Source of the DNA: Candidatus Thorarchaeota archaeon
GTDB taxonomy: Archaea > Asgardarchaeota > Heimdallarchaeia > Hodarchaeales > Hodarchaeaceae
Length of the DNA stretch: 32,000 bases
Assembly: GCA_048882505.1 (NCBI GenBank)
Contig: JBHLRO010000001.1
Coordinates: 210,001 to 242,000, forward strand
Direction: 5' to 3'
Part shown: positions 8,596 through 28,877 of the stretch, in pieces
Layout: the number at the start of each line of letters is the position of its first letter
How positions within the stretch are numbered: position 1 is the first letter of the stretch
Notes under the pieces: generated by a model
Database searches by the model: none
Seen by the model: the letters and a program-made list of their open reading frames with translations, nothing else
What the model was told of the DNA's origin: nothing
Program-made: the position numbers and the translations under genes

Positions 8596-10935
8596 TCAAA
8601 GAAGTTGTAGGTTGTTACCATCAAATGAAATCATACCTCGAATAGTGAGCATCTTTAAGAGAGGTACGATTTCAGTTTCTGATTTGTTAAGGAGGGCACA
8701 CAAGCGATCCTTGGTCATTCCACCGGGATTGAATTTTAGGATTGAAATAATAGCCTCAATGGCATTAACAGATTCTGAACTCGTAGTCGGAACCGTCTTA
8801 ATGACAGCTTCACTTCCTATCCCCCCCAGATGTGCGAATATTGACTTGAAAACCGTTATGCGATTTAGACATTCTTCGAATACATAGGTAATGGCCTGAT
8901 CTCGTGTGATTGTTTGGTCATCGAGTGTCAAATCACCAGAGCTCGCGAATTCAATTAATTTCTTTGTCGCAAGGAGAGCTTGATTACTATGGAAGTCTAT
9001 ATAGTATAATCCCCCATAATCAGTTAGTGATTCCGCCAGATCTAAAGATTTGGTCGCTGTTCTCTGCAAACTTAGCTCTTCATCCCTTAATATGAATGCG
9101 TTCCGTATATTTCCCTTGACAAGCTTCCTCAAACGTCTTAAGCTCTGAAAAACTGTTGACCCATGCTCGCTGTTGTTAATTTCAATGCCGACGCTGTTTG
9201 CTCCTCTGGGAGTCTGGTATGTAAAAACGAGATCAAGACCTTTGGTGTCTTGGGAATCTCTCAGTCTATCAATTCGGACATTAAGAATTGTTATCCCGTA
9301 AAAGGGACGTTTTTTTTCTATACTGGTATTCAAAAGATCATAAAGAACTCCTTTGCAGAAGTCACGTCTAACAGGATGAGGATATTCATAAATCTCTGTT
9401 TCAAATTCACGAGCATATTTCGCCCATTGGGCCTCAAGAAAATTGATAACCTTGTTTGATCGATCTTCCATAACGGGAGAGGCAGAAGAAACTTTCTCAA
9501 CGTGTGTATCGCTTCCTAGTACTGGGCCCTCCTTTTTTATGACACCCTCTGAAATCGTAGGATCAAGCTCTGCAAATAGTTCCGCTAGTGCGTGCTGCTC
9601 GTGTGGACGTAATTCAACTCTTGCAGACCCTTCAAGCTCTGATACGGACTCGGGAGAAACTGAGGAAGGGGTTGATACTATTTCATCAGGTGTCATTGGT
9701 GGTACTCCTTCGACTGCCTCCTTCTGAACAGTCAGTTGGATGTCGCTTTCGGATAGCGCTCTAATATAGCCTTGGTCTTTGAACTCGTTGATTCGATCGC
9801 GCAGATGCCGAAGAAACAAACGGGGATTCCCTTCGAAGTTTCTAACGCTCACAGAAATGAACTCCTCTGAAAATGGATAAGAAGGAAAAGGTGGTGAAAT
9901 CCCAGAATCTTTGAACAGTGTAGCGATGCGAGCTTCTGCCAACAAGGTTGCGGTCTCCGTGTTTAGCGGCTCAAGACTAGTGACATAATCTATTCTTTGC
10001 CTGGAATATTCTGGAACCTCTTTAACGATGGATTCCTTCCATACGACAGATTGAACCATGGCCAATACAAGGACATGCCGGCATTGATTGTACAGATTAG
10101 TCAGTGAGTCAAATAATAGTCCAATTCCATTATCTCGTTTAAATCTAATATAGATCGATTCTAGCTGGTCAAAACTAAGTAATAAAGGTTTTTTCGCAAG
10201 AATTGTGACTGTCTGTATGATAGATAAGGCGCGGTTTTCAGAAACAATGGAATCTGGAACATCCAGTTTTTCAAGGTCCTCCTCGGATACTTCAATGCCA
10301 GATAGCCACTTAAACGCAGCAGGCCTGGTTATTGGGTTCAGTGTATGGAATAAAACTTCAAGGAATCCAATATCAATATCGGGATGAACGGTTGCCAAAT
10401 AATTAATTGCCATTCGTCTTAGATTTGTGGAATAAAATTTCTCTGGTTTGAATTTAAAAATCTTCATTGGATCATTAGCAAATGATTGTGATAAACTACG
10501 AGCGACAGGATTATCTGGGAGTCCTTCTGATAGGGCTCGAGAAATAACATCGCCAATGAATTGTTCTAAAGGACTATACTCGGTGCCATCCATCTTCTTA
10601 CGTAAAGAAATCATAATTTCTTGAAGGATATGACCATAAATCCGTTGGAGATCACCTAAAGGGCGTACACTAACGAATAAAAAGTCTCTTTCAAGAGCAA
10701 TGCGTCTGAGGCGGGCAAGAATGTGTGTTTTTCCCACACCAGCATCACCAAGAATCATACACATCCCCGAACGACCAGTAGACCGAACTTCGTCCAGGGT
10801 CTCTAGCACAATCCGAGTTGCCTTTCTATTGAATTCAGGAACGTCAATGACTTCAGTCTGCCAGGGATCCCCGACACTAGTACTGCGAAAAGGATTGACC
10901 TTACCCAATATGATTGCATCGTATATTTCCGGCAA
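8596..10935 (-). CDS. AAA+/STAND-like P-loop ATPase fused to a putative REase-fold domain and a C-terminal wHTH
   Basis: Walker A GDAGVGKT, Walker B LLLSFDQLE, KWLSG, sensor-2-like GNPRLFLR, an S/P/E-rich linker (about aa 400-495), GLDLV...VGIEINN, and a terminal wHTH (MTKDRLCALLN..LLKMLTIRGMI). TTG start follows GAGGT. Confidence 0.85.
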   Translation of the reverse strand: MPEIYDAIILGKVNPFRSTSVGDPWQTEVIDVPEFNRKATRIVLETLDEVRSTGRSGMCMILGDAGVGKTHILARLRRIALERDFLFVSVRPLGDLQRIYGHILQEIMISLRKKMDGTEYSPLEQFIGDVISRALSEGLPDNPVARSLSQSFANDPMKIFKFKPEKFYSTNLRRMAINYLATVHPDIDIGFLEVLFHTLNPITRPAAFKWLSGIEVSEEDLEKLDVPDSIVSENRALSIIQTVTILAKKPLLLSFDQLESIYIRFKRDNGIGLLFDSLTNLYNQCRHVLVLAMVQSVVWKESIVKEVPEYSRQRIDYVTSLEPLNTETATLLAEARIATLFKDSGISPPFPSYPFSEEFISVSVRNFEGNPRLFLRHLRDRINEFKDQGYIRALSESDIQLTVQKEAVEGVPPMTPDEIVSTPSSVSPESVSELEGSARVELRPHEQHALAELFAELDPTISEGVIKKEGPVLGSDTHVEKVSSASPVMEDRSNKVINFLEAQWAKYAREFETEIYEYPHPVRRDFCKGVLYDLLNTSIEKKRPFYGITILNVRIDRLRDSQDTKGLDLVFTYQTPRGANSVGIEINNSEHGSTVFQSLRRLRKLVKGNIRNAFILRDEELSLQRTATKSLDLAESLTDYGGLYYIDFHSNQALLATKKLIEFASSGDLTLDDQTITRDQAITYVFEECLNRITVFKSIFAHLGGIGSEAVIKTVPTTSSESVNAIEAIISILKFNPGGMTKDRLCALLNKSETEIVPLLKMLTIRGMISFDGNNLQLL

Positions 10936-17818: not shown

Positions 17819-18104
17819 ATCATAAAGACTAGACAAGAATACCGTATGTCTCCCTCCTAGCAGAAGCATTTAACGCTCAGTTATCCTGACACTCGGGAAT
17901 ACTGGGTATCGTATCATTGCCGCACGAAAGGATCCAATTCATGAGTCGATGTTTCTTCTGGTTATTTGGATTTCCAAGGACTATATTATGGGATTCGTTG
18001 AAATGGAGTCCGAAACTGTTCTGTAACCCGATCGTATAATCGAACTTCCGATTGTCTTCCGTATTGACAGGTATTTCATTTCTGCTCTTTCTTGAAAGTT
18101 CTGC

Positions 18105-18114
18105 TATAATATAT
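18105..18114 (+). promoter_or_regulatory. Candidate TATA-like box for the nfeD-flotillin pair
   Basis: TATAATATAT about 50 nt upstream of ATG 18163, which supports that start over TTG 18052. Confidence 0.3.
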
Positions 18115-18162
18115 CTTTTAAAGTTTCGAGTGCAGGATTACCTGAATCTTACGGTATGGTTA

Positions 18163-18888
18163 ATGAGCGAACTGGAACTTATTCTACTTATTTTTCGACA
18201 GATTTGTTTCGGTAGCTTGATCTCAGGGTTTATTATCTTCTTTTTAACGCTCTTTCTCCAAGGATCCCACATATTTGACCACGATTATGACCTAAATCAT
18301 GATATTGATCATGATCTAACCGTAGAATCCGACCTTACCGTTGGTGTAGATAAAGATATCCACGTTGGGATTGATAAGGATATTAACGTCGGTGTAGATA
18401 AAGATTTGGACTTTCATGATCAGCAAATCGATGTTGATACACCAGCCCCTCTCATGCTCATACTGGGTACGTTCATGATAACCTTCGGGGGTACAGGTAC
18501 GTTTCTTCTAAATAATTCGTTCGTAAATCCCCTTCTTTCACTGTTAATAACCGTAGTATCACCTTTTCTAGTGACAATTGGAGTTGCCAAACTTTGGGCA
18601 CGAATCGCAGTTGAAGACACATATCAAACAGCATTAGAAACCATAAGAGTCGATGATGAGGTGAAAACATTGACCACCGTGGATAGCCAAGGCGGCCTTG
18701 TTCGTGTAGAGACCTCATCAATCCATGGACCTATTAAATTGGCTGCAAAGACCCGTTACGGCGCGATCCCTAAGGATATGCCTGCTTACGTCGTCGAGGT
18801 TAAAGGAACTATACTAATTATTGATGAATGGCCTACGCATGATGGGAAGGAGAAATCGATTCCAGAGGGGAAGATAACATGGGAATAA
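18163..18888 (+). CDS. NfeD-like (YqiJ/YuaF-type) membrane protein with C-terminal OB fold
   Basis: N-terminal TM, Asp/His-rich loop, two further TMs (FMITFGGTG), C-terminal GGLVRV...IKLAA....IPK...AYVVEVKGTILII. Located directly upstream of an SPFH gene. Confidence 0.8.
   Translation: MSELELILLIFRQICFGSLISGFIIFFLTLFLQGSHIFDHDYDLNHDIDHDLTVESDLTVGVDKDIHVGIDKDINVGVDKDLDFHDQQIDVDTPAPLMLILGTFMITFGGTGTFLLNNSFVNPLLSLLITVVSPFLVTIGVAKLWARIAVEDTYQTALETIRVDDEVKTLTTVDSQGGLVRVETSSIHGPIKLAAKTRYGAIPKDMPAYVVEVKGTILIIDEWPTHDGKEKSIPEGKITWE
18340..18411 (+). repeat. Three imperfect 24-nt tandem repeats encoding VG(V/I)DKD(I/L)x
   Basis: GTTGGTGTAGATAAAGATATCCAC / GTTGGGATTGATAAGGATATTAAC / GTCGGTGTAGATAAAGATTTGGAC, in frame within the NfeD-like gene. 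Confidence 0.85.
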
Positions 18889-18959
18889 GAGCTCCATTTG
18901 CGAGTTCCGCAGGTTATAAAGGTAATAACTTCCTAAATTTGAATATAGGTGAAAAATAA

Positions 18960-20195
18960 GTGAACACAGACTATTTTCTACAAGCAGATCTAGGACCTTT
19001 TCTCTTGGGAAACCTATGGTTGGTTTTTGTCTTTGGATTTGTGCTTTTCTTGTTGTTCGTTCTTTTTTACTTGTCTCGTTATCGAAAGTATAAAACCAAT
19101 GAATATGTAATCCATTTTAGAGCTGGCAAGGTTAAACGGGCTGGTACAGGTGGAACAGTCATTTTATGGCCAGTTATAGACGAGGTAGTTGTAATACCTA
19201 CCACTGTCCAGCAAACCCTCTTGGAAGCTCGGGAGAAAGTGGTTTCCTATGAGTATCAGGATGTTGCCATAACCGCATTCGTCTATTGGCGGGTTACGAA
19301 TCCCGAAGTTAGCTTTTCCAAAGTGAGTTGGAATCCCGTAAGAAGTGATTACGTGGAAAAAGCAATTAAAAACGCTACTGAGGCAATAATACGCACTACT
19401 TGTGCCAATATGCCTATTGAACAGATAATACGAAATAGGGCGGAGATTATCAAACAGGTTACGAGTGAATTACATAATCTGGCGGGAGACTGGGGCATTA
19501 CAGTCGAATCAGTGGAGATCCGAGACGTAGAGGTCGTTGATGAACGCCTAAAAGAGAATTTGGAAGCAGTCAAAAAAATCGCTGAGTCTCAAAACGCTCA
19601 ACTTCGTCAAGCAGAAATGGAGGAACTAGTGCAGCTCCGAAATCTCGAGGTCAGGAGAAAGACCGGTGAAAGCGATCAGGCAGTTAAACTGACAATAGAG
19701 CAGAAAGCCAAGGATCGTGAAATTAAAATCGCGCAATTGGAACAGCAACGCGCCGTAATCGCGGCGGAAACCGAACGCAAGCAAAAACAGATTAACGCCG
19801 AAGCTGAAAAATACCTTCGAGTAACCCAAGAAGTAGGGGTTGAAGCAGAACGAATCCGCCAGCAAGCCATTGCCCGCAAGGATCAATTACTGGCTGAAGC
19901 TGAAGGCGAGGCCGAAAAGATTCGAAAGACACAGATTGCCTTAGCAGAGGGAATTCTTGAACAATCAAAGGCTTTGAGTCAATCAGATGGTAAATACATC
20001 CAACTGAAGACGATAGACATGCTTCCAGAAGTTTTCAAGAATATTAATGTCGATCGGATGATCCTACTCGGCGAAGGTCAAGATGCATACAAAGGGATTG
20101 CCCAAATGATCCTTCCATTCATGGAGCTAGCTAAGGAAACAGGGATATTATCTTCAAAGGCAGACCAAAAACGGAAAAGGATTCCTGCGCAATAA
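18960..20195 (+). CDS. SPFH-domain flotillin-like protein (FloT/YqiK type)
   Basis: N-terminal TM, SPFH core (WPVID, FVYWRV, EAIIRTTCANMPIEQI, WGITVESVEIRDV), Ala/Glu-rich coiled coil (AEAE repeats), C-terminal NVDRMILLG. GTG start follows AGGTGA. Confidence 0.88.
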   Translation: MNTDYFLQADLGPFLLGNLWLVFVFGFVLFLLFVLFYLSRYRKYKTNEYVIHFRAGKVKRAGTGGTVILWPVIDEVVVIPTTVQQTLLEAREKVVSYEYQDVAITAFVYWRVTNPEVSFSKVSWNPVRSDYVEKAIKNATEAIIRTTCANMPIEQIIRNRAEIIKQVTSELHNLAGDWGITVESVEIRDVEVVDERLKENLEAVKKIAESQNAQLRQAEMEELVQLRNLEVRRKTGESDQAVKLTIEQKAKDREIKIAQLEQQRAVIAAETERKQKQINAEAEKYLRVTQEVGVEAERIRQQAIARKDQLLAEAEGEAEKIRKTQIALAEGILEQSKALSQSDGKYIQLKTIDMLPEVFKNINVDRMILLGEGQDAYKGIAQMILPFMELAKETGILSSKADQKRKRIPAQ

Positions 20196-20226: not shown

Positions 20227-22503
20227 TCATGGGGTATCTAACAATAGCTTCACTAGTCTGAGTGCAATCTCTTTGTCTAAGGGGAAATTATCATTCCCGC
20301 ATTTTGGACTTTGAACACAGCTCGGACACCCGCCAGAACAGGCACAATCCCTGATTAATTCTTTAACACATACAAGAAGAGTCCTAATCTTAGAGTAAAG
20401 CATTTCAGTAATACCGATTCCTCCTGGGAAACCATCATAAATGAAGATTTTTACGCGCCCATCCATTGGATATTTTGGGTAGGAAACGCCCCCAATATCC
20501 CACCGATCACACATTGCAAACATAGGGGATAAAGCAATAGTTGCATGCTCCAATGCATGAATTCCTCCAGGGAGGTCTCCTCTGGATTCGATTATCTGGT
20601 TTACGATTTGGTCGGGGATATCAAACCACAACGCCTTAGTATCGAACTTAAGCGGTGGTAAATCTAAAGGAATTGTCTCTAGGACTTCCAATGGCGTTTG
20701 TTTGACATAAGAGTGATAAACTTCTGTTACTCGAACTTCCCCATAAGTTACTGGAAATCCAATTTTAACTTCTTTTAGAACAGACAGGATTTGAACATCA
20801 GAAGTGGATTTTGTCTCAGTGTAGTAGTCTACTTCGATCTTAGCCGCAAACGCTTTTCCTAAATCCCAATCCATTTTCTTAATAAGGTAGGTCTCGGCTT
20901 GATGGATTAGAATGGCTCCTTCATGGGCTTCACGATACGCCTGGGGAATTGTCATAGTTTCCAAGAGGGTACCGCTCTCCAATACCTCTATGGTGCTAGT
21001 GAAAGCGGAATTTAGGTGAACGATGGATGCCGGACGTTGATTTGAAGATGCTGTAATTCCACGGCGTGAGATATTCACCAATGATTCTTGGCGGAGTTCA
21101 TTGAATAACTGCTTCCCCATTTCGCCCCAGATACTCTCGATCTCCTCAATTTGTACAGGGATTTCTTTGGCAGCACATAGAAGATGGCCTTTGAGAATGT
21201 ATGGATTTTCAAGGTCAATAATGGCGTTTTCAGGGTTCCGATCTAGAAGGTATTTTGGATGATTTCCCAGAAATTGTTGATAGGCATCTGAAAAAAGAAC
21301 TAGGGTCGCAAATGAAGATCTGTCTGGATTTCTTCCTACTCTTCCAATTTGTTGCCACAGGGAAATTATAGTGCCAGGAAAACCTGACAAAATCACGGCA
21401 TCTAACTCGCCGATATCGATCCCTACCTCTAGGGCGTTAGTACTTGTGACAGCTTGAATTTCTCGCTTTCTAAGCTTTTCTTCAATCGCACGCCTTTCTC
21501 GTGGGCGGTAGCCAGCTCTATAGGACATTACTTGCTCTGGATTCTCTTGATCTGTTGCTAGATCGTGTTTTACCCACCTGGAAAGCAGTTCTGCCATGCG
21601 TCGGGATTGTGTAAAGCAAAGCGTTTGGAAACCTTGTCTTAGATGTTCGTACAAGAGCTCTCTCGTTTCTTGATGGGGAGAACGTCTAACAACATCATTG
21701 TCGGAAAGAAAAGGCGGATTCCACATAATAAAATGCTTTTCTCCGATGGCAGCCCCATTGTCTGCAACCACTTCTACTGGTTTCCCGATCAGCTTTGTAG
21801 TAAACTCCTTTGGATTATTGATTGTGGCAGAAGAAAGGATAACTTGCGGGGAGGAATTATATTGTCTAAGAATCCGAAAAAGCCGACGAAGCAATTGGGC
21901 CACATTTGACCCAAAAACACCACGATAAGTGTGGGCTTCGTCAATGATAAGGAACCTCAAGTTCCGAAAGAAGCGATCCCATTTTGGATGCCAGTCGAGG
22001 TACTGATGCAGGGCATATGGGTTTGAAATAATCACTTGCGCATAGTTACGAATAGCTGGCCTTTTTTCTGATGGTGTGTCTCCATCGTAGATAAAGGGCC
22101 GCAGTTTTCCCTCCAAGACAGAATCTAATTCCTCCAATTTTTTTAATTGGTCATTGGCAAGAGCTTTCATGGGATAAAGAAACAGGGCTGTTGTCCGTCT
22201 TTTCTCTGCAATTGCGTCTGCAACAGCAAGAGAGAAAATTAATGTTTTACCTGATGCAGTCGGGGTAGTAATCACAATATTCTTTTTCTGATGGATTAAA
22301 TTCAGAGCTTCGGCTTGATGACTGTATAATCGCAGTTTCTTTCTCCTAAGCCATTTTTCTAACGAGGGGCTAAGGGAAAAGTCCAGTGTTCCATAGACGG
22401 GGGATTTGGGAGCGAATTTCGTTTCAAAGATTATCTGTTCCTTATAACTTGGATCGGACTTTATGTTTGAATAGATATTGGATATCTCCACTGAAAATCC
22501 CAT
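20227..22503 (-). CDS. SF2 DEAH-box helicase with C-terminal DUF1998 (Hrq1/MrfA(YprA)/SftH family)
   Basis: LYSHQ, TPTASGKT, YPMKALANDQ, YDGDT, IDEAHTYRGVFGSNVA, SAT, YRAGY, TNALEVGIDIG, QQIGRVGR, HALEH, YDGFPGGIG, and the Cys cluster MCDR...CACSGGCPSCVQSPKC. Confidence 0.93.
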   Translation of the reverse strand: MGFSVEISNIYSNIKSDPSYKEQIIFETKFAPKSPVYGTLDFSLSPSLEKWLRRKKLRLYSHQAEALNLIHQKKNIVITTPTASGKTLIFSLAVADAIAEKRRTTALFLYPMKALANDQLKKLEELDSVLEGKLRPFIYDGDTPSEKRPAIRNYAQVIISNPYALHQYLDWHPKWDRFFRNLRFLIIDEAHTYRGVFGSNVAQLLRRLFRILRQYNSSPQVILSSATINNPKEFTTKLIGKPVEVVADNGAAIGEKHFIMWNPPFLSDNDVVRRSPHQETRELLYEHLRQGFQTLCFTQSRRMAELLSRWVKHDLATDQENPEQVMSYRAGYRPRERRAIEEKLRKREIQAVTSTNALEVGIDIGELDAVILSGFPGTIISLWQQIGRVGRNPDRSSFATLVLFSDAYQQFLGNHPKYLLDRNPENAIIDLENPYILKGHLLCAAKEIPVQIEEIESIWGEMGKQLFNELRQESLVNISRRGITASSNQRPASIVHLNSAFTSTIEVLESGTLLETMTIPQAYREAHEGAILIHQAETYLIKKMDWDLGKAFAAKIEVDYYTETKSTSDVQILSVLKEVKIGFPVTYGEVRVTEVYHSYVKQTPLEVLETIPLDLPPLKFDTKALWFDIPDQIVNQIIESRGDLPGGIHALEHATIALSPMFAMCDRWDIGGVSYPKYPMDGRVKIFIYDGFPGGIGITEMLYSKIRTLLVCVKELIRDCACSGGCPSCVQSPKCGNDNFPLDKEIALRLVKLLLDTP

Positions 22504-22505
22504 AA

Positions 22506-24860
22506 TTAAGATATATCTGATATGACTGAGTGACCATCTCTATTCCGGCTAATGTTTATAGAATATGGGAATTGATCCGCGATTTCAGTCAAGTGAGTTA
22601 TTAGGATTATTTTGAACTTATGAGATAGTTTGAACAGCTTATTAACGAAAGCTTGTTGAGCTTCCAATGAATCTAATGAGCCTAGGTCTCCCTCATCTAT
22701 AAAAAGAGTCTTTTTTATAGTGGAATCCTTAGGATGATTTTGACCCAGTTCAGAAAGCTGCTCACTAATTGCAAGGCGCAGGGCGGCATTGATCTGGGTC
22801 CGTTCCCCTCCTGAGAATGTCGCAACATCTCGAGCACCCGTGGGAGTATTGATTAGAATATTAAAACCAGTCGCTTTCTTTTCAGATGAGAGTTCTTCGA
22901 GCTGAAGGTTAGTCAACCTTTGATTGGTAAGTTCTCCAAGAATGTATGATGCTCTTCGTCCAATCAGGGGTAAAATCTTTTGAATCGCATAGAACGGAGC
23001 CCCTTTGGTATGAAATACATCTATTTTTAGACGTTCTAATATCGACTCTTTCTTTGCCAAATCTGCTAGCGCATTCTCTAGCTGTTCAATCTCAGGCTTG
23101 ATTTTAGTTAACTCATCTAGATTTCGCTCATATCCCTTTATTTTTTCATCAAGACGGGCGATGTTCTCATTGACAATCTCGCGTTCTGCCTTATAGTTCT
23201 CAATATCCTTTAGAAGAGAGGAGTATTCTGCTATAATATCGGGAGATCCGGATAAACTTATCTTGAATTCGGAAATAGATTTCCGTATTGATGTGATCTG
23301 CTTGTTTATGGAATCGATTGCACTTGTGGGATCTTTAACCTCCTCCAATTCCTTCTGTAATCTATTATACTCCTGCTTAATCTTTTTGATTTCCTTATTT
23401 TTCTTTAAGAGCTCCGCAAGTTTTGTTCCCTTCTCTGGTGAGAACCCAATTTCCTTTAGACGTGATTCTGCGTCTTTTAGCTCGAGTTCATGTCTGGCCA
23501 AATCTTCATCCAGTCGATCCATCATGGCCTTTTTCATGTTCTTAAAATCCGCAATTTTACTCTGGATCTCGCTGAGTACAAAAGAATCGGCATTAATTTT
23601 GTTTTTAACTTCTTCTAGGCTTGCAAGTTCAGTTCTTGCTTTCTGTTGTTCTTCTCCAAGTTCATTCAGAAGGAGTTCTCCCAAATTCCAAGTTTTTTCC
23701 AGGGAAATCCGTTGAATACGTTCTACAAGACGCCCTTCTTGTTTTAGCGTTTTAAAGGCTGTCTTTTGGTCGATATCCGTTGACAGGTTCTTGCTTCTAG
23801 TCTCTTCCTTTGAAATACGACTCTCAATTTGCGACTGCTCTAATGTCCCTTTTTCTTTTAAGCGATTCACCTGCTGAACCATTGCTTTTATCTGCTGTTT
23901 TACCGATTTACTTTCGTGTTGAAGACCAGTGAGAGTGAGAATTTGATCCTCATCATCCCTTATCAGATTTGTTTTATCTCTAAGATCATCTAATCGTTTT
24001 TTTAGTATATTAAATTCATCTAGTTGTTTATTTTGTGTTTTCAATTCTTCTGAGATGCGAACCAATTGGTTTTGGGCAGCCTCATACTGTGCTTGGATTC
24101 TACGATAGTGTTCAACCTCTTTTTGCCTGTCATTTTCCTTAGACCTTAACGAGGTTAGTTTATCTGAAATGGCCTTATTACGATTAATATTGTGGACTAA
24201 TTGAGGTTTTAATTCCTGAATATTATTCTGCATGGCGGTAATTCTTTCTATTTCTTTTTGTTTCTCTTCTAATATACCTGAAAGCCTATTCTTATCATTT
24301 AACACATTTTGTAGTCTTGATGTGGCATATTGTGAGGCTTTCTCAAAAATATCAAGTCGAAAAAGGTTTTGAAGTGTGGATAACCGTTCCGTTGACGTTT
24401 TTGAACCTAAAGCCTTCATCTCATCTTGTCGGATGATTGTGGCATGCTTGAATGCTTGATAGTTCATTCCAAGTAGGTTGGTTCTAAGCAACCTATTCAG
24501 ATCAGGGATTGTGCCTGGAACCGTCCTCCCATCAACTCGAACGTCCAAATAACTCCGCCCTTGCTTATTTCTACCACGTTCAACCCTTACTCTAGCTAAA
24601 TTCGTCCTAAAATGACAAACTACTTTACCATTTCTGCCACATATGTTCTCAATATTGACAGTTGGAAGTTCAGTTCTGGAACTTCGACCAAATAATGCAA
24701 AGGTTAATGCATCTAATATTGTGGTCTTCCCCGAACCTGTCGGGCCGGATATTACTAGATATGGAACCTTAAAATTGAGGGTAGTAGGGGATCTGTAGTT
24801 CATAAAATTGTAGAGCTTAATCCTTTGAAGGTCAAACCCGATCCCGATTGTCTCACCCAC
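22506..24860 (-). CDS. rad50: Rad50/SbcC-type SMC-family ATPase lacking the CXXC zinc hook
   Basis: Walker A GPTGSGKT, Q-loop IRQDE, coiled coil about aa 171-612, signature FSGGE, Walker B/D-loop LFIDEGDLGSLD, H-loop ITH. GTG start overlaps the upstream TAG by 1 nt. Confidence 0.9.
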   Translation of the reverse strand: MGETIGIGFDLQRIKLYNFMNYRSPTTLNFKVPYLVISGPTGSGKTTILDALTFALFGRSSRTELPTVNIENICGRNGKVVCHFRTNLARVRVERGRNKQGRSYLDVRVDGRTVPGTIPDLNRLLRTNLLGMNYQAFKHATIIRQDEMKALGSKTSTERLSTLQNLFRLDIFEKASQYATSRLQNVLNDKNRLSGILEEKQKEIERITAMQNNIQELKPQLVHNINRNKAISDKLTSLRSKENDRQKEVEHYRRIQAQYEAAQNQLVRISEELKTQNKQLDEFNILKKRLDDLRDKTNLIRDDEDQILTLTGLQHESKSVKQQIKAMVQQVNRLKEKGTLEQSQIESRISKEETRSKNLSTDIDQKTAFKTLKQEGRLVERIQRISLEKTWNLGELLLNELGEEQQKARTELASLEEVKNKINADSFVLSEIQSKIADFKNMKKAMMDRLDEDLARHELELKDAESRLKEIGFSPEKGTKLAELLKKNKEIKKIKQEYNRLQKELEEVKDPTSAIDSINKQITSIRKSISEFKISLSGSPDIIAEYSSLLKDIENYKAEREIVNENIARLDEKIKGYERNLDELTKIKPEIEQLENALADLAKKESILERLKIDVFHTKGAPFYAIQKILPLIGRRASYILGELTNQRLTNLQLEELSSEKKATGFNILINTPTGARDVATFSGGERTQINAALRLAISEQLSELGQNHPKDSTIKKTLFIDEGDLGSLDSLEAQQAFVNKLFKLSHKFKIILITHLTEIADQFPYSINISRNRDGHSVISDIS

Positions 24861-26080
24861 TACTCGTCCACCTCCAATAACGCCTCGTCGAGGATTTCCT
24901 TCCCCGTTTGTAACAGTTCCTTCTGGTATGGGAAATCCTTACATTGATCCTTTATGTAGTCGTCAAATAGATGACGGGGGTCAAGTGTAAAACTTTCAAG
25001 GATCGTAGGTTTGATATCCTCCATTCTTTGCCACAGGATCTCGTAGTGGAACGCTTTTTCCAGCTGGGCAATGAGTTTGGGCATATTGATTCGTTTTTTA
25101 ACCGAGGGAGAGATCGAAATGTCCAATCTCAATACAATGTCTTCAAGTGTATCGGGTAATTGTTTCAAAATCGTATTGGTTGGATCAGAACTGCCATCTG
25201 GAACCACAATTTGTGTTCTAGTTAGTCTCCTAGGTTTACTAGAATGAAAGGACAAGGTTTTGGATTCGGTGTCATAAATATAGAATCCCTTTTTCTCATT
25301 CACTTCCCCGAAGTCAACACGCTCTATGGAGCCTGGAATCAGGACTTTATCATGATAGATAGTCTGCGGAGTATGGATATGTCCAAACACTGCCAAATCG
25401 ATTTGATCTAGCGGCAGCATTTGCTTTTTAACCACGAATTCATGCGGCAATTGATCAGGGTATGGAATTTTCCCGATTTTCGACCCTGAAACGAAAAAAT
25501 GGCCCACGATAAACTTGGCTGAAGTATTAAGGGACTGGATTTGCCGTTTGATCCAAATCTCCATCCACTCTTGCATACGCAGTAAACGTTTATCTCTGGG
25601 AATTGTTTCTCCCATATTTCGTTCGATATGTTCTAGTAGCTGGGTAGGGGTCATATACGGTATTAGTATAAATCCGATTTCCTCTTCTGTTGATGGTACG
25701 TATATGGTTACCGATTTTGGCAGCCTTGTGACAAAACAATTGGAAAAATTAGTTAATTCCCCAAAAGGGGCTCCTTTTTCTGTGATTTGGGGAGAATCGT
25801 GATTTCCCCCAATTATGATTAATTGAATATTACTTGCTATGAATTTAGACCAGATTTTTTCACGGACTTGCCGGAGGAGTGTAGGACCGACATTTACTCT
25901 GTCAAAAAGGTCGCCTGCAATCACAAAGATATCTATCTTCTCATGAATGGCTTTTATGACGATTTTTTCCAAAGTTTCAACGAAATCCAAAGTTCGCTGA
26001 CTCAGTCCAGTCCTGTAGTCTATCTGATACGGGTAGCGAATCCCAATGTGGATATCAGCAACGAACAAAATCCTAGCCAT
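24860..26080 (-). CDS. mre11: Mre11/SbcD-type metallophosphoesterase nuclease
   Basis: Five phosphoesterase motifs: ADIHIG, AGDLFD, GGNHDS, VGHFF and FGHIH. Also PGSIERVDFGE..KGF. GAGGA ribosome-binding site. Confidence 0.93.
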   Translation of the reverse strand: MARILFVADIHIGIRYPYQIDYRTGLSQRTLDFVETLEKIVIKAIHEKIDIFVIAGDLFDRVNVGPTLLRQVREKIWSKFIASNIQLIIIGGNHDSPQITEKGAPFGELTNFSNCFVTRLPKSVTIYVPSTEEEIGFILIPYMTPTQLLEHIERNMGETIPRDKRLLRMQEWMEIWIKRQIQSLNTSAKFIVGHFFVSGSKIGKIPYPDQLPHEFVVKKQMLPLDQIDLAVFGHIHTPQTIYHDKVLIPGSIERVDFGEVNEKKGFYIYDTESKTLSFHSSKPRRLTRTQIVVPDGSSDPTNTILKQLPDTLEDIVLRLDISISPSVKKRINMPKLIAQLEKAFHYEILWQRMEDIKPTILESFTLDPRHLFDDYIKDQCKDFPYQKELLQTGKEILDEALLEVDE

Positions 26081-26102
26081 TCAAATGTCCTCTAATCTGG
26101 AA

Positions 26103-27755
26103 TCAAGGATCAAAGAAGTGTTCCATTTGTTCCTCAGACATACCTTCAAGTTTTTTCCGAAAATCCTCTCTTGAGGATCCCTCGACTTTCCACTTGGTAC
26201 TCATTGATAGTTCATTGTAATCCAAGACATCCATAGCCGTTGGTGCCTTTATAGCATCTCCAAACATAAGAACAGTCCTGACAGGCATGGCCTTTACAAT
26301 TGCCTTCCACGCTGCAGGATCAACTGGCCCTGTCAGGGCTCCCACAATATCCTTAGGATCAGTTAGGGAAAGGACGAATCGATTAGCCAACTGAGACAGG
26401 ATCTCAGTATCAATTTTCGAAGGACGCTGGTCAACCATCGCTAATACAAGGTTGAATTTTCGCATTTCACGAGCAAGACGATCAAAAATTGTATATCGTG
26501 CTACCGACGGTTCTAAGAATTTGTGAGCCTCTTCTAATAGTACTACTAAATGAGGAAGATCTGAAGCCTCATCAGATCGACTGTAAAGATTATACAGACG
26601 TCTAGATATAATATTGGCTACAAAAACGTAAGCAAAATGATCTCCACCATATTTACCAAAATCAATGACAATACTCTGATTGCTCTTTATATAACCGATA
26701 AGGTTATTGAGGGTTCCTCTACCGGATTCTACCACGAATTCTAGTCGATTAAGCCTTCCCATACGTCTAGCAAGTGCATTCAAGGTGTTGACGGTTGAAC
26801 TATACGGATTCTCCTCAAGGAGGGGTGCAGATCGAATAGCATCCACCAAAGATTGGTTCCCCGCTCTTTTTGAATCTATTTCGAAGATGGCATCTACCAT
26901 GGAGGGGGATAGATCTTGAAACACCACTAGTAGATCATCGGACGTAATTTCATCTTCCCCAATTAACAAATCCGCATCTCCCACTCTTGTTGCCACTGGA
27001 TCAAGTCTGATTAGCGTTACCTGATCTTCAAAGAAAAACTTCAACCCGGGGGATCGATCGGCTCTGGAACGCCAACCGTACTCCGACTGCATATCGAAGA
27101 CCAAAACCTGAGAAACACCAGTAAATAAAATGTTTCCTAATATTATTTTGTTTAAAAAGGTTTTTCCAGAGTGGGTTCGTCCAAATATACCAAATGGTAC
27201 TTCGATGAGCGTTTTAAAGTCAATAGGTATTTCAAACTTAGGAACCCCTCTCAGTGTGCCTATTGTCTGATGGAGTTCCGGTCTATCTGCAATATAAACT
27301 TGATTTACATCTTCCTCATTAGCTAAACGGCCCGAAGAGAAATAGGGTGGCAAAGTTTCAAACTGATATGTTTTTCCACTAGTTTTCTCTATCATTAAAA
27401 GGCATTGGAGCATTGCAGTACTAAAAAAAGTACGGCCCCTCGCTGTTTCAATCATACTACTGGGAATAGTACTTCGGAGTCTTTCAGCATTGGCCAGCAT
27501 GGTTACTGCATTGCTACCTGGGAAGCAAATGTCCGAAAGCATACAATAAAAATCAAATTTTTTTCCCTCGACCACAACTGGGTATCCTATTCTCACCTCT
27601 TCGCTGTCCTCTTTCAATTTAAGTTCAATTGCCCCACTGACGGCTCCTGAGATAACCTCTCCAAGAACAGCGTTTTCAGATGATTTAGGATCCGAACTAA
27701 TCATGTTTCCGTTTTCAATACTGTCGGATGAAGGGTCGCCTTTCAGAATATTCAC
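26103..27755 (-). CDS. herA: HerA-family ATPase/translocase with N-terminal HAS barrel
   Basis: N-terminal beta-barrel (LGEVISG..GYPVVVEG), IFGRTHSGKT, VFDMQSEYGW, Walker B VLLEEAHKF, arginine finger AREMRKF, DQRP, SQLAN, FGDAI. Confidence 0.9.
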   Translation of the reverse strand: MNILKGDPSSDSIENGNMISSDPKSSENAVLGEVISGAVSGAIELKLKEDSEEVRIGYPVVVEGKKFDFYCMLSDICFPGSNAVTMLANAERLRSTIPSSMIETARGRTFFSTAMLQCLLMIEKTSGKTYQFETLPPYFSSGRLANEEDVNQVYIADRPELHQTIGTLRGVPKFEIPIDFKTLIEVPFGIFGRTHSGKTFLNKIILGNILFTGVSQVLVFDMQSEYGWRSRADRSPGLKFFFEDQVTLIRLDPVATRVGDADLLIGEDEITSDDLLVVFQDLSPSMVDAIFEIDSKRAGNQSLVDAIRSAPLLEENPYSSTVNTLNALARRMGRLNRLEFVVESGRGTLNNLIGYIKSNQSIVIDFGKYGGDHFAYVFVANIISRRLYNLYSRSDEASDLPHLVVLLEEAHKFLEPSVARYTIFDRLAREMRKFNLVLAMVDQRPSKIDTEILSQLANRFVLSLTDPKDIVGALTGPVDPAAWKAIVKAMPVRTVLMFGDAIKAPTAMDVLDYNELSMSTKWKVEGSSREDFRKKLEGMSEEQMEHFFDP

Positions 27756-27762
27756 TGCCTTT

Positions 27763-28806
27763 TTACCGAGTTATGGTGTCTAAATGTCTATGAAATGGAT
27801 CTATCGTCATATTTTCATATGTAATGAGATTTTTGAAAAGGGCTTCTTCATTAACCCCCAACTGAAATCCTACTTCAACCAACTCATCATTGTACATCTC
27901 TGGAACTCGTCTTAGAAGAGTTGCTATATTATGTGCGTCAACGAGAGGAAATGGGTATCCTGGAATGCTGTCTACCTTTGAGTAGTATGCTAAATGAGAG
28001 AAAATATCATCCAGTTTTTCTTTACCAGTTATGGCTATGTCCACTCGAAAGACTTTGATAGGGTCTTCATGAAGCTTGGCTAGAAATCCCTTACCAAGAT
28101 TGGGATAAACCTGTTTCTTCTCTGGTACTTCCTCAATCCTAGTATAAACCATCCTAGGATCATCCTTTACCAGTTCCCGAAATACAGCTTCATCAGTTAA
28201 AGTGTTAGCAAATTTACGAGCAGTGCTTCTTTTCGAGATGCCAATTAAAACATGATTCTTGTTTTTACAGGTGGTTAACAGTTCTTCGGCGGCTTTTTTG
28301 ATTTCATCAACTTGAACATATGTTAATGCCCCGTCCATAGCCACGATTGCATCAGAGAACTTTTCGGCTGCTTGTGTTGCAGTATAGAACTCTTCGATGT
28401 TTCTCAGTTGGTTTAAGATGCCCAAGGACCTTTGTTTTCCCCCTAGTGTTCGAGAAATCTCTTGATGGAGAATCCGATAATCTTGGTCAAAATTTAGGAG
28501 ATCCGGGTTATTCGGAGCTATCAAGAAGGCTTTGTCATGAAATTGATGTTCGTCCAAAACGAGCATATCAGATACCGTATCATAATCATAAACCACCACA
28601 GCAGTTCTGACAACCGCGATCCGTACATCTAGGTCCGCATTATACCAAATCCATCTGTTTGAACCGTCAACCGCTATCATTTTTGGTGGTGGGTCTCCGT
28701 ATGTGAACTCATGAAACTCTTGAGGAGCGTTGCGCTTGATATCCTGATTTGCGGAATTCTGTGAGCTCTGGATATGGGAAAGAAAGAGCTCGAACTGTTT
28801 TCTCAT
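27763..28806 (-). CDS. nurA: NurA 5'-3' nuclease (RNase H fold)
   Basis: IAVDGS, R..EE, AMDGAL, IGISK and GYPFPLVDAHN motifs, with the catalytic Asp/Glu/His positions intact. Located immediately upstream of herA. Confidence 0.88.
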   Translation of the reverse strand: MRKQFELFLSHIQSSQNSANQDIKRNAPQEFHEFTYGDPPPKMIAVDGSNRWIWYNADLDVRIAVVRTAVVVYDYDTVSDMLVLDEHQFHDKAFLIAPNNPDLLNFDQDYRILHQEISRTLGGKQRSLGILNQLRNIEEFYTATQAAEKFSDAIVAMDGALTYVQVDEIKKAAEELLTTCKNKNHVLIGISKRSTARKFANTLTDEAVFRELVKDDPRMVYTRIEEVPEKKQVYPNLGKGFLAKLHEDPIKVFRVDIAITGKEKLDDIFSHLAYYSKVDSIPGYPFPLVDAHNIATLLRRVPEMYNDELVEVGFQLGVNEEALFKNLITYENMTIDPFHRHLDTITR

Positions 28807-28869: not shown

Positions 28870-28877
28870 TTATAAAA
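28870..28877 (-). promoter_or_regulatory. Candidate TATA box (TTTTATAA) for the nurA operon
   Basis: About 64 nt upstream of the nurA ATG, in the divergent intergenic region. Confidence 0.35.

Follow-up and report, generated by a model that had tools for sequence, protein, structure and literature searches.

In Sulfolobus, Pyrococcus and Thermococcus, the genes herA, mre11, rad50 and nurA are clustered in an operon whose presumed role is the processing of DNA double-strand-break ends. Helicase-nuclease pairs that resect DNA are also known from other systems, among them RecQ-RecJ, Sgs1/BLM-Dna2 and RECQL4 with MRN. The common principle of these pairs, and of Hrq1 with Pso2, is a 3'-5' superfamily 2 (SF2) helicase that stands beside end-processing nucleases; the helicase-nuclease pairing of Hrq1 with Pso2 has been described in bioRxiv 10.1101/773267. 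MrfAB (YprAB) of Bacillus subtilis is a mitomycin-C repair pair, in which the 3'-5' helicase MrfA binds MrfB and cooperates with it (bioRxiv 10.1101/426304; PMC7797055), and a further described helicase of this kind is SftH of M. smegmatis. The YprA family comprises a repair branch, with members that occur as “YprA only” or are paired or fused with MrfB, and a defence branch (10.1101/2025.09.15.676423). Here, we analyzed a stretch of 32,000 nucleotides (nt) from the genome of a Candidatus Thorarchaeota archaeon of the family Hodarchaeaceae (GenBank assembly GCA_048882505.1, contig JBHLRO010000001.1, positions 210,001 to 242,000; this whole stretch is referred to as the window). Five consecutive open reading frames (ORFs) on its minus strand encode NurA, HerA, Mre11, Rad50 and an SF2 helicase of the MrfA/YprA/Hrq1 type (Table 1).

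Compared with the archaeal herA-mre11-rad50-nurA operon, the locus contains the same four protein families in one cluster, here too with intact catalytic motifs, and it presumably shares the function in double-strand-break end processing. It differs in its gene order, which is nurA-herA-mre11-rad50, in profile scores far below the equivalog cut-offs, in a Rad50 without zinc hook, in the appended fifth gene for the SF2 helicase, and in the existence of a separate, more canonical-looking NurA-HerA pair in the genome. The helicase matches MrfA over the full length, including the DExH core, the winged helix and the cysteine-rich zinc-binding domain, and like Hrq1 it has an Hrq1-type winged helix according to Pfam. 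In contrast to MrfAB, no MrfB-type DEDDh exonuclease was recognised beside it or elsewhere in the genome, and the helicase gene is the last one in an operon with two nucleases (Mre11 and NurA) and two other ATPases. The gene arrangement resembles the helicase-nuclease pairs named above in principle. DISARM (DrmAB), Druantia (DruE), Dpd and ARMADA are defence systems that share the SF2 core and DUF1998 with this helicase, which differs from them in being small and undivided and in lacking their PADLOC partner genes (DrmB/DrmC, DruA-D/H, Dpd, or a BrxHII-like helicase with a PglX-like methylase). The locus is a divergent, hookless and re-ordered archaeal resection operon combined with one half of MrfAB, and as such it was confirmed as a real feature. 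Our literature search found no paper describing an MrfA-type helicase linked to nurA-herA-mre11-rad50.

Operon structure and protein identities

The original prediction had described five co-directional genes separated by 7 nt (nurA-herA), 22 nt (herA-mre11), −1 nt (mre11-rad50, with overlapping TAG and GTG) and 2 nt (rad50-helicase), and all of these values were reproduced exactly by the ORF listing and by reading the junctions. At the mre11-rad50 junction, the mre11 stop codon TAG shares its G with the rad50 start codon GTG, which begins at that base, and the rad50-helicase junction reads TAA-TT-ATG. The nurA-herA gap may be wider than 7 nt, because the herA start (GTG at 27755) is uncertain by as many as ~25 codons: alignments of orthologues begin at residues 14-28, and the true start may lie about 14-28 codons downstream. 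The TTTATAA motif, which is the candidate promoter of the operon, aligns with a CTTAWAAG element that is kept upstream of nurA in most of 12 other loci from the genus of the source genome, and GGAGG or GGAAG occurs at the equivalent spot before rad50 in 8 orthologues from this genus. The helicase start, located at most 9 nt from the rad50 stop, has no Shine-Dalgarno-like motif and is consistent with termination-reinitiation after rad50. From these signals, we infer that all five genes are read from a single transcript, which starts at the promoter upstream of nurA, and that their translation is coupled. Co-expression of the five genes as one operon is well supported for this Hodarchaeum-type genus, which includes Ca. 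Hodarchaeum mangrovi.

The identities that had been proposed for the five genes held, as Pfam assigns all of them (Table 1). For the MrfA/Hrq1-type helicase, this assignment is further borne out by an alignment of residues 26-732 of its 758 residues with the structure of Bacillus subtilis MrfA/YprA (PDB 6ZNP; E = 1.4e-144), by the winged helix, and by the MZB/DUF1998 domain, whose model PF09369 is covered completely (positions 1-80 of 80). The match to TIGR03817 extends over 36-740 of 742 positions and reaches 706 bits, which is below the curated cut-off of 874. Motifs I (..TASGKT), II (DEAH), III (SAT) and VI (QxxGRxGR) align with those of MrfA in 6ZNP and are invariant in 40 homologues, as are the cysteines C665, C720, C722, C726, C729 and C735. 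The first five of these belong to the zinc-binding domain and line up with cysteines of MrfA. Models for the defence helicases DrmA, DruE and DpdJ/F from NCBIfam and PADLOC produced partial, weak matches. By its size and similarity, the helicase belongs with the repair-branch MrfA/YprA type rather than with the defence side of the family, and its kinship with MrfA predicts a 3'-5' unwinding activity.

Residues D47, E139, D158, H292, H339 and D343 of NurA do not vary among 49 homologues, and its orthologues across the genus share 46-57% identity. The Walker A (G-R-T-G-x-G-K) and Walker B/E408-E409 columns of HerA are invariant in 22 homologues; the identity of this protein is 66-70% within the genus, ~50% to sister Hodarchaeales, and 41-49% to Thermoplasmata and Methanocellales. 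The phosphoesterase residues D9, H11, D57, N93-H94, H194, H234 and H236 of Mre11 are conserved in 49 homologues. This protein scored 74.7 bits with the sbcD subfamily model of NCBIfam (cut-off 77.65) and 30-50 bits with archaeal Mre11 models. The best solved relatives of Rad50 are archaeal Rad50 heads (5F3W and 3AUX), and its Walker A, Q-loop, signature motif, Walker B and H-loop could all be read in the translation. Scores with the equivalog models were low throughout: 24.8 bits for NurA_Sulf (cut-off 400), at most 63 for the HerA models (800-970), at most 50 for the Mre11 models (500-600), and at most 100 for the Rad50 models (700-1087). Judged by these scores, the four proteins are members of their families and not equivalogs of the characterised Sulfolobus, Pyrococcus or haloarchaeal proteins. 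A “bacterial-type” origin of HerA, Mre11 and Rad50 was considered and rejected, since 79 of the best 80 HerA loci were found in archaeal metagenome-assembled genomes (MAGs) and the solved Rad50 relatives are archaeal; among these three proteins, only Mre11 leans toward SbcD models.

The only cysteines of Rad50 are C74 and C82, and there is none in residues 83-784, so that the protein has no CxxC zinc hook. The same absence of CxxC from the coiled coil applies to 54 of 54 Rad50 orthologues of this operon type (from Hodarchaeales, Thermoplasmata, Methanocellales, Methanomassiliicoccales and Bathyarchaeia), several of which lack cysteine altogether. A Pfam zinc-hook search, whose sensitivity was low (4 of 14 reference genomes detected in the control), gave nothing above the cut-off in five genomes, namely the source genome, a closed genome from the genus and three euryarchaeal genomes.

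Table 1 Coding and putative regulatory features of the five-gene locus (window coordinates, listed in order of transcription for the genes).
Feature	Position	Strand	Description
nurA	27763..28806	-	347 amino acids (aa); operon gene 1; Pfam NurA PF09376, 47.6 bits, residues 42-295
herA	26103..27755	-	550 aa as called; Pfam DUF87/HerA central domain, 54.1 bits
mre11/sbcD-type nuclease	24860..26080	-	406 aa; Pfam Metallophos/Mre11-SbcD, 58 bits
rad50-like SMC ATPase	22506..24860	-	784 aa; Pfam AAA_23/SMC_N, 74.3 bits
MrfA/YprA/Hrq1-type SF2 helicase	20227..22503	-	758 aa; Pfam DEAD 115.8 bits, Helicase_C 63.7 bits, WHD_HRQ1 (PF22982) 39.7 bits, MZB/DUF1998 (PF09369) 75.3 bits
TATA-box-like TTTATAA, candidate operon promoter	28870..28876	-	64-70 nt upstream of the nurA ATG
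GGAGG Shine-Dalgarno-like motif	24871..24875	-	within the mre11 3' end, 11-15 nt before the rad50 start

Conservation in the genus and genomic setting

Both the helicase (63-92% identity) and the operon HerA are present in 18 of the 21 other species genomes of the genus. The two genes share a contig in 10 genomes, where they are ~5.2 kb apart and in the same order; wherever upstream sequence is available, rad50 precedes the helicase gene, and the order of the five genes is identical, a recurrence that speaks against a chance arrangement. In each of the 10 genus loci that carry both, the gap between rad50 and the helicase gene lies between −4 and +9 nt, and the mre11-rad50 overlap is nearly always 4 nt in the genus orthologues. 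The cluster of nurA, herA, mre11 and rad50 was found in 16 genus loci. Identity across the genus is ~65% for the helicase and ~49% for Rad50. Open frames of 1449-1555 aa in three genus genomes were examined as possible rad50-helicase fusions and rejected, because a single in-frame stop separates the two genes.

The neighbourhood is syntenic across the genus, with a 2-hydroxyacid dehydrogenase gene on one side of the five genes and a subtilase gene on the other. Gains and losses of genes occurred on either side of the block, whereas its interior was free of them. The genes upstream of nurA are variable, and the slot between the helicase and subtilase genes holds 0-3 variable genes (empty in some species, three small genes in others). 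In the window, the region between the helicase gene and the S8 subtilase gene (18052-20195, plus strand) encodes a 278-aa ORF without Pfam match and an SPFH/Band-7 protein. One genome (G015; CP070760.1, a single-contig MAG “chromosome” with 70% completeness) has the block split inside rad50: one part (nurA-herA-mre11 and Rad50 residues 6-175) lies near 240 kb, the other (Rad50 residues 250-779 and the helicase) near 760 kb. Either rad50 has been disrupted by a genuine rearrangement, or the split is a product of the assembly. At 8596-10935 of the window (minus strand), 9 kb from the operon, lies the gene for a 779-aa AAA_16/AAA_22 ATPase with faint matches to BrxC/BrxD and to SngB of PADLOC; the protein may belong to the STAND type and act in defence or surveillance, and its gene is not kept beside the operon across the genus.

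The source genome is archaeal by its ribosomal proteins S3Ae, L32e and L19e, and its named relatives are Hodarchaeales/Heimdallarchaeota MAGs. The original prediction had raised the question of a second, canonical herA-mre11-rad50-nurA locus in this genome, and none was detected. A second NurA-HerA pair exists on contig 16 (39963-42498), beside the genes for ribosomal proteins S3Ae, L32e, L19e, L18 and S5 and without adjoining Mre11 or Rad50. Its HerA scored 172 bits with NF040819, compared to 46 bits for the operon HerA, and two further HerA-like genes are present in the genome. An orphan Mre11-like metallophosphoesterase of 389 aa is encoded on contig 5 (129253-130419, minus strand), between an FtsX permease gene and a pyridoxal phosphate (PLP) decarboxylase gene and with no Rad50 nearby; it scored 60 bits with the Pyrococcus Mre11 model, compared to 41 bits for the operon Mre11. 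No second Rad50 was found in the genome by protein search, tblastn, or the archaeal Rad50 model. The operon holds the only detectable Rad50 and the only detectable Mre11-Rad50 pair of the genome. A second DUF1998 helicase with N-terminal tetratricopeptide repeats (935 aa; contig 7, 27093-29900, plus strand) is ~30% identical to the operon helicase and occurs in nearly all genomes of the genus as well as in other Heimdallarchaeia; downstream of its gene lies a 373-aa gene with no Pfam match.

As the original prediction had stated, the window contains no gene for an MrfB-type (PF13482/DEDDh) exonuclease. The search across the assembly, which is 94.5% complete, gave two weak PF13482 matches (28-29 bits) inside frames of 838-890 aa, neither of them convincing. 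A PF13482 exonuclease gene lies directly upstream of the helicase gene in 3 of 20 helicase loci from other Asgard genera (two f23 genomes and one f15 genome), and also in G035 and in an unassigned archaeal contig of P0191. Canonical mrfB-mrfA pairs were thus observed in several Asgard lineages, one of them in the same class as the source genome. Of 301 sampled Asgard genomes, 93 contain a helicase orthologue. The helicases of the genus form one clade in a maximum-likelihood tree (Shimodaira-Hasegawa-like approximate likelihood-ratio test (SH-aLRT) support 100). This clade is joined, at a moderate support of 91, by stand-alone helicases from other Hodarchaeales/Heimdallarchaeia, and the Asgard helicases linked to MrfB sit in a neighbouring clade. 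Because the tree places the genus helicases with these stand-alone relatives, relocation is a better description than acquisition, and the simplest history would be that a resident helicase gene moved once behind rad50, with mrfB lost or never carried along.

The operon-type HerA clade is patchy in Asgard archaea (24 of 301 genomes). A scan of the GTDB species genomes with the HerA profile yielded 64 loci from outside the genus, which belong to Thermoplasmata, Methanomassiliicoccales, Methanocellales, Bathyarchaeia and one other Heimdallarchaeote. The complete four-gene set occurs in 46 of these 64 loci, always in the order mre11-rad50-nurA-herA, whereas the Hodarchaeales have the order nurA-herA-mre11-rad50, with or without helicase. 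A few euryarchaeal loci contain a gene for a protein of 620-640 aa on the opposite strand between rad50 and nurA.

Cooperation, shared expression or defence

We lean, with moderate confidence, towards a genus-specific extension of the archaeal DNA-end-processing operon, in which the helicase would serve the same pathway as the nucleases of the block. In the ancestor of the Hodarchaeum-type genus, an MrfA/YprA helicase gene would have been relocated to a position directly behind rad50. The encoded 3'-5' SF2 motor with its zinc-binding DUF1998 canopy could then start unwinding at a 3' tail or nick where DNA ends are broken, blocked or cross-linked. Mre11-Rad50 (a 3'-5' exonuclease and endonuclease), NurA (a 5'-3' nuclease driven by HerA), or both would degrade the displaced strands and fill the role that MrfB plays elsewhere. 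Cooperation of the helicase with the other four proteins, be it functional or physical, is a reasonable assumption because the tight coupling has been retained at ~35% protein divergence, because an MrfB partner is missing, and because the biochemistry of the partners would match.

Several observations weigh against this extension of the pathway. The original prediction had proposed a survey of Asgard and other genomes for a linked helicase, and had named a helicase that is adjacent only in close relatives as an argument against itself; the linkage is confined to one genus, which largely corresponds to that situation. None of the 64 HerA loci from outside the genus has a helicase match within up to 10 kb. 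In three loci of sister Hodarchaeales, including Heimdallarchaeota LC_3, nurA-herA-mre11-rad50 is followed by unrelated genes and not by a helicase gene. Conversely, 0 of the 20 helicase loci from other Asgard genera lie within ~8.5 kb of a NurA, HerA, Mre11 or Rad50 homologue, and four Asgard genomes from outside the genus that possess both the HerA clade and the helicase have them on different contigs or 180 kb apart. Furthermore, the searches did not recover the block as a whole from three genomes of the genus, which are 71-87% complete, and it may be dispensable. There was no fusion to Mre11, Rad50, NurA or HerA domains among 35 longer relatives of the helicase, which is weak evidence; these relatives comprise Hrq1-like proteins of eukaryotes as well as forms fused to NERD, DnaJ and other domains. 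A conserved partner is missing from many YprA helicases of the repair branch (10.1101/2025.09.15.676423), and independent function is hence normal for this family. The same preprint contains no mention of an association with Rad50, Mre11, HerA or NurA. Since the linkage appears to have arisen once, in one genus, its persistence could reflect inheritance in a syntenic region rather than selection for coupling. This also weakens the expanded resection machine with two motors that the original prediction had put forward, for which one capture event and the tight coupling speak, with no independent recurrence and no fusion proteins.

These points lend themselves to the main alternative explanation, namely that the helicase landed behind rad50 once, was kept there by descent or by a shared promoter that responds to DNA damage, and acts alone. 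The single origin in one genus, a syntenic region with little rearrangement that could have parted the genes, the mostly missing conserved context of repair-branch YprA genes, and the lack of fusion proteins would all be expected if the genes were co-expressed without cooperating. However, a gap of −4 to +9 nt in 10 of 10 genus loci, despite the turnover of the flanking genes, is harder to reconcile with passive inheritance. In addition, the MrfB that relatives of the same class have kept is missing, which would leave the helicase with no dedicated nuclease unless its neighbours supply one. We regard co-expression without cooperation as possible, short of probable.

The extension of the end-processing pathway could also be taken further than we have done so far. 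The helicase might be a fifth subunit or obligate partner of the hookless Mre11-Rad50/HerA-NurA machinery, with Mre11 or NurA replacing MrfB, and the helicase and HerA feeding the same nucleases. We consider this specific form of the pathway reading unlikely. A complex prediction with alignments for the fragments Mre11 1-330, NurA 20-347 and helicase 425-758 returned a score of 0.00, in an analysis without control runs, and counts neither for nor against binding.

An alternative that the original prediction had offered is that the five genes form a nuclease-helicase system against viruses or plasmids. Analogues would be the DUF1998 helicases of DISARM, Druantia, Dpd or ARMADA and the defence systems that contain HerA. 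Both DUF1998 helicases and HerA ATPases are indeed known from defence systems, and PADLOC gave partial matches to DruE (141 bits in 4 pieces of a 1776-position model), HerA (at most 78 bits) and LmuB (75 bits, by Rad50). The absence of the block from three genus members, the patchy HerA clade and the STAND-like ATPase 9 kb away in the window would also fit defence. However, the helicase can be aligned over its whole length with MrfA, which is a repair helicase (E 1e-144), and with TIGR03817, and its 758 residues correspond to a stand-alone MrfA, whereas the defence models of PADLOC have 1095-2055 positions. Neither Pfam nor PADLOC detected an adjoining methyltransferase, PLD nuclease, DrmB-type split or other defence gene. 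In addition, this locus carries the sole Rad50 detected in the genome, its chromosomal neighbourhood is conserved across the genus, and the HerA profile found no relatives on viral contigs of IMG/VR. The repair-type helicase, the single Rad50, the conserved synteny and the viral contigs all speak against defence, which we consider very improbable. Least probable of all is that the helicase compensates a tethering or processing defect of the hookless Rad50. In its favour, the window Rad50 and its 54 orthologues all lack the hook, and the low-sensitivity search detected no hook-bearing Rad50 in the source genome or the closed genus genome. However, the same hookless form occurs in loci that have no linked helicase (the 46 complete four-gene loci and those of sister Hodarchaeales) and hence does not require one.

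The likeness to MRN-RECQL4, which the original prediction had also brought up, is an analogy only. The Mre11-Rad50 of this operon differs from the partners of RECQL4/Hrq1 in being hookless and patchy in Asgard archaea, and the linkage occurs in one genus. For these reasons, it provides no evidence on the eukaryotic ancestor, and the operon would be at most a parallel of the eukaryotic RECQL4/Hrq1-MRN arrangement and not its ancestor.

Significance for MrfA-type helicases and archaeal end resection

MrfA/YprA/Hrq1 helicases are widespread, but beyond MrfAB their mechanism and partners are poorly defined, and most of them have no conserved genomic context. The weight of the operon described here is limited by the fact that it reflects a single event in one uncultured genus, and that its Mre11-Rad50 is not of the eukaryote-like form. 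If the helicase is indeed a fifth subunit or partner, the operon would provide the first defined partner set for an MrfA helicase without MrfB. It would then also represent an independently evolved prokaryotic counterpart of the cooperation between Hrq1/RECQL4 and MRN, in the archaeal order that is placed closest to eukaryotes. In any case, the locus shows how plastic the end-resection operon can be in mesophilic archaea: its gene order can flip, the Rad50 hook can be absent, and motors can be added. For the helicase family, it puts a member without MrfB into putative translational coupling with the two archaeal end-processing nucleases that are known best, and it thus offers a testable hypothesis on which nuclease an MrfA helicase may serve when MrfB is missing.

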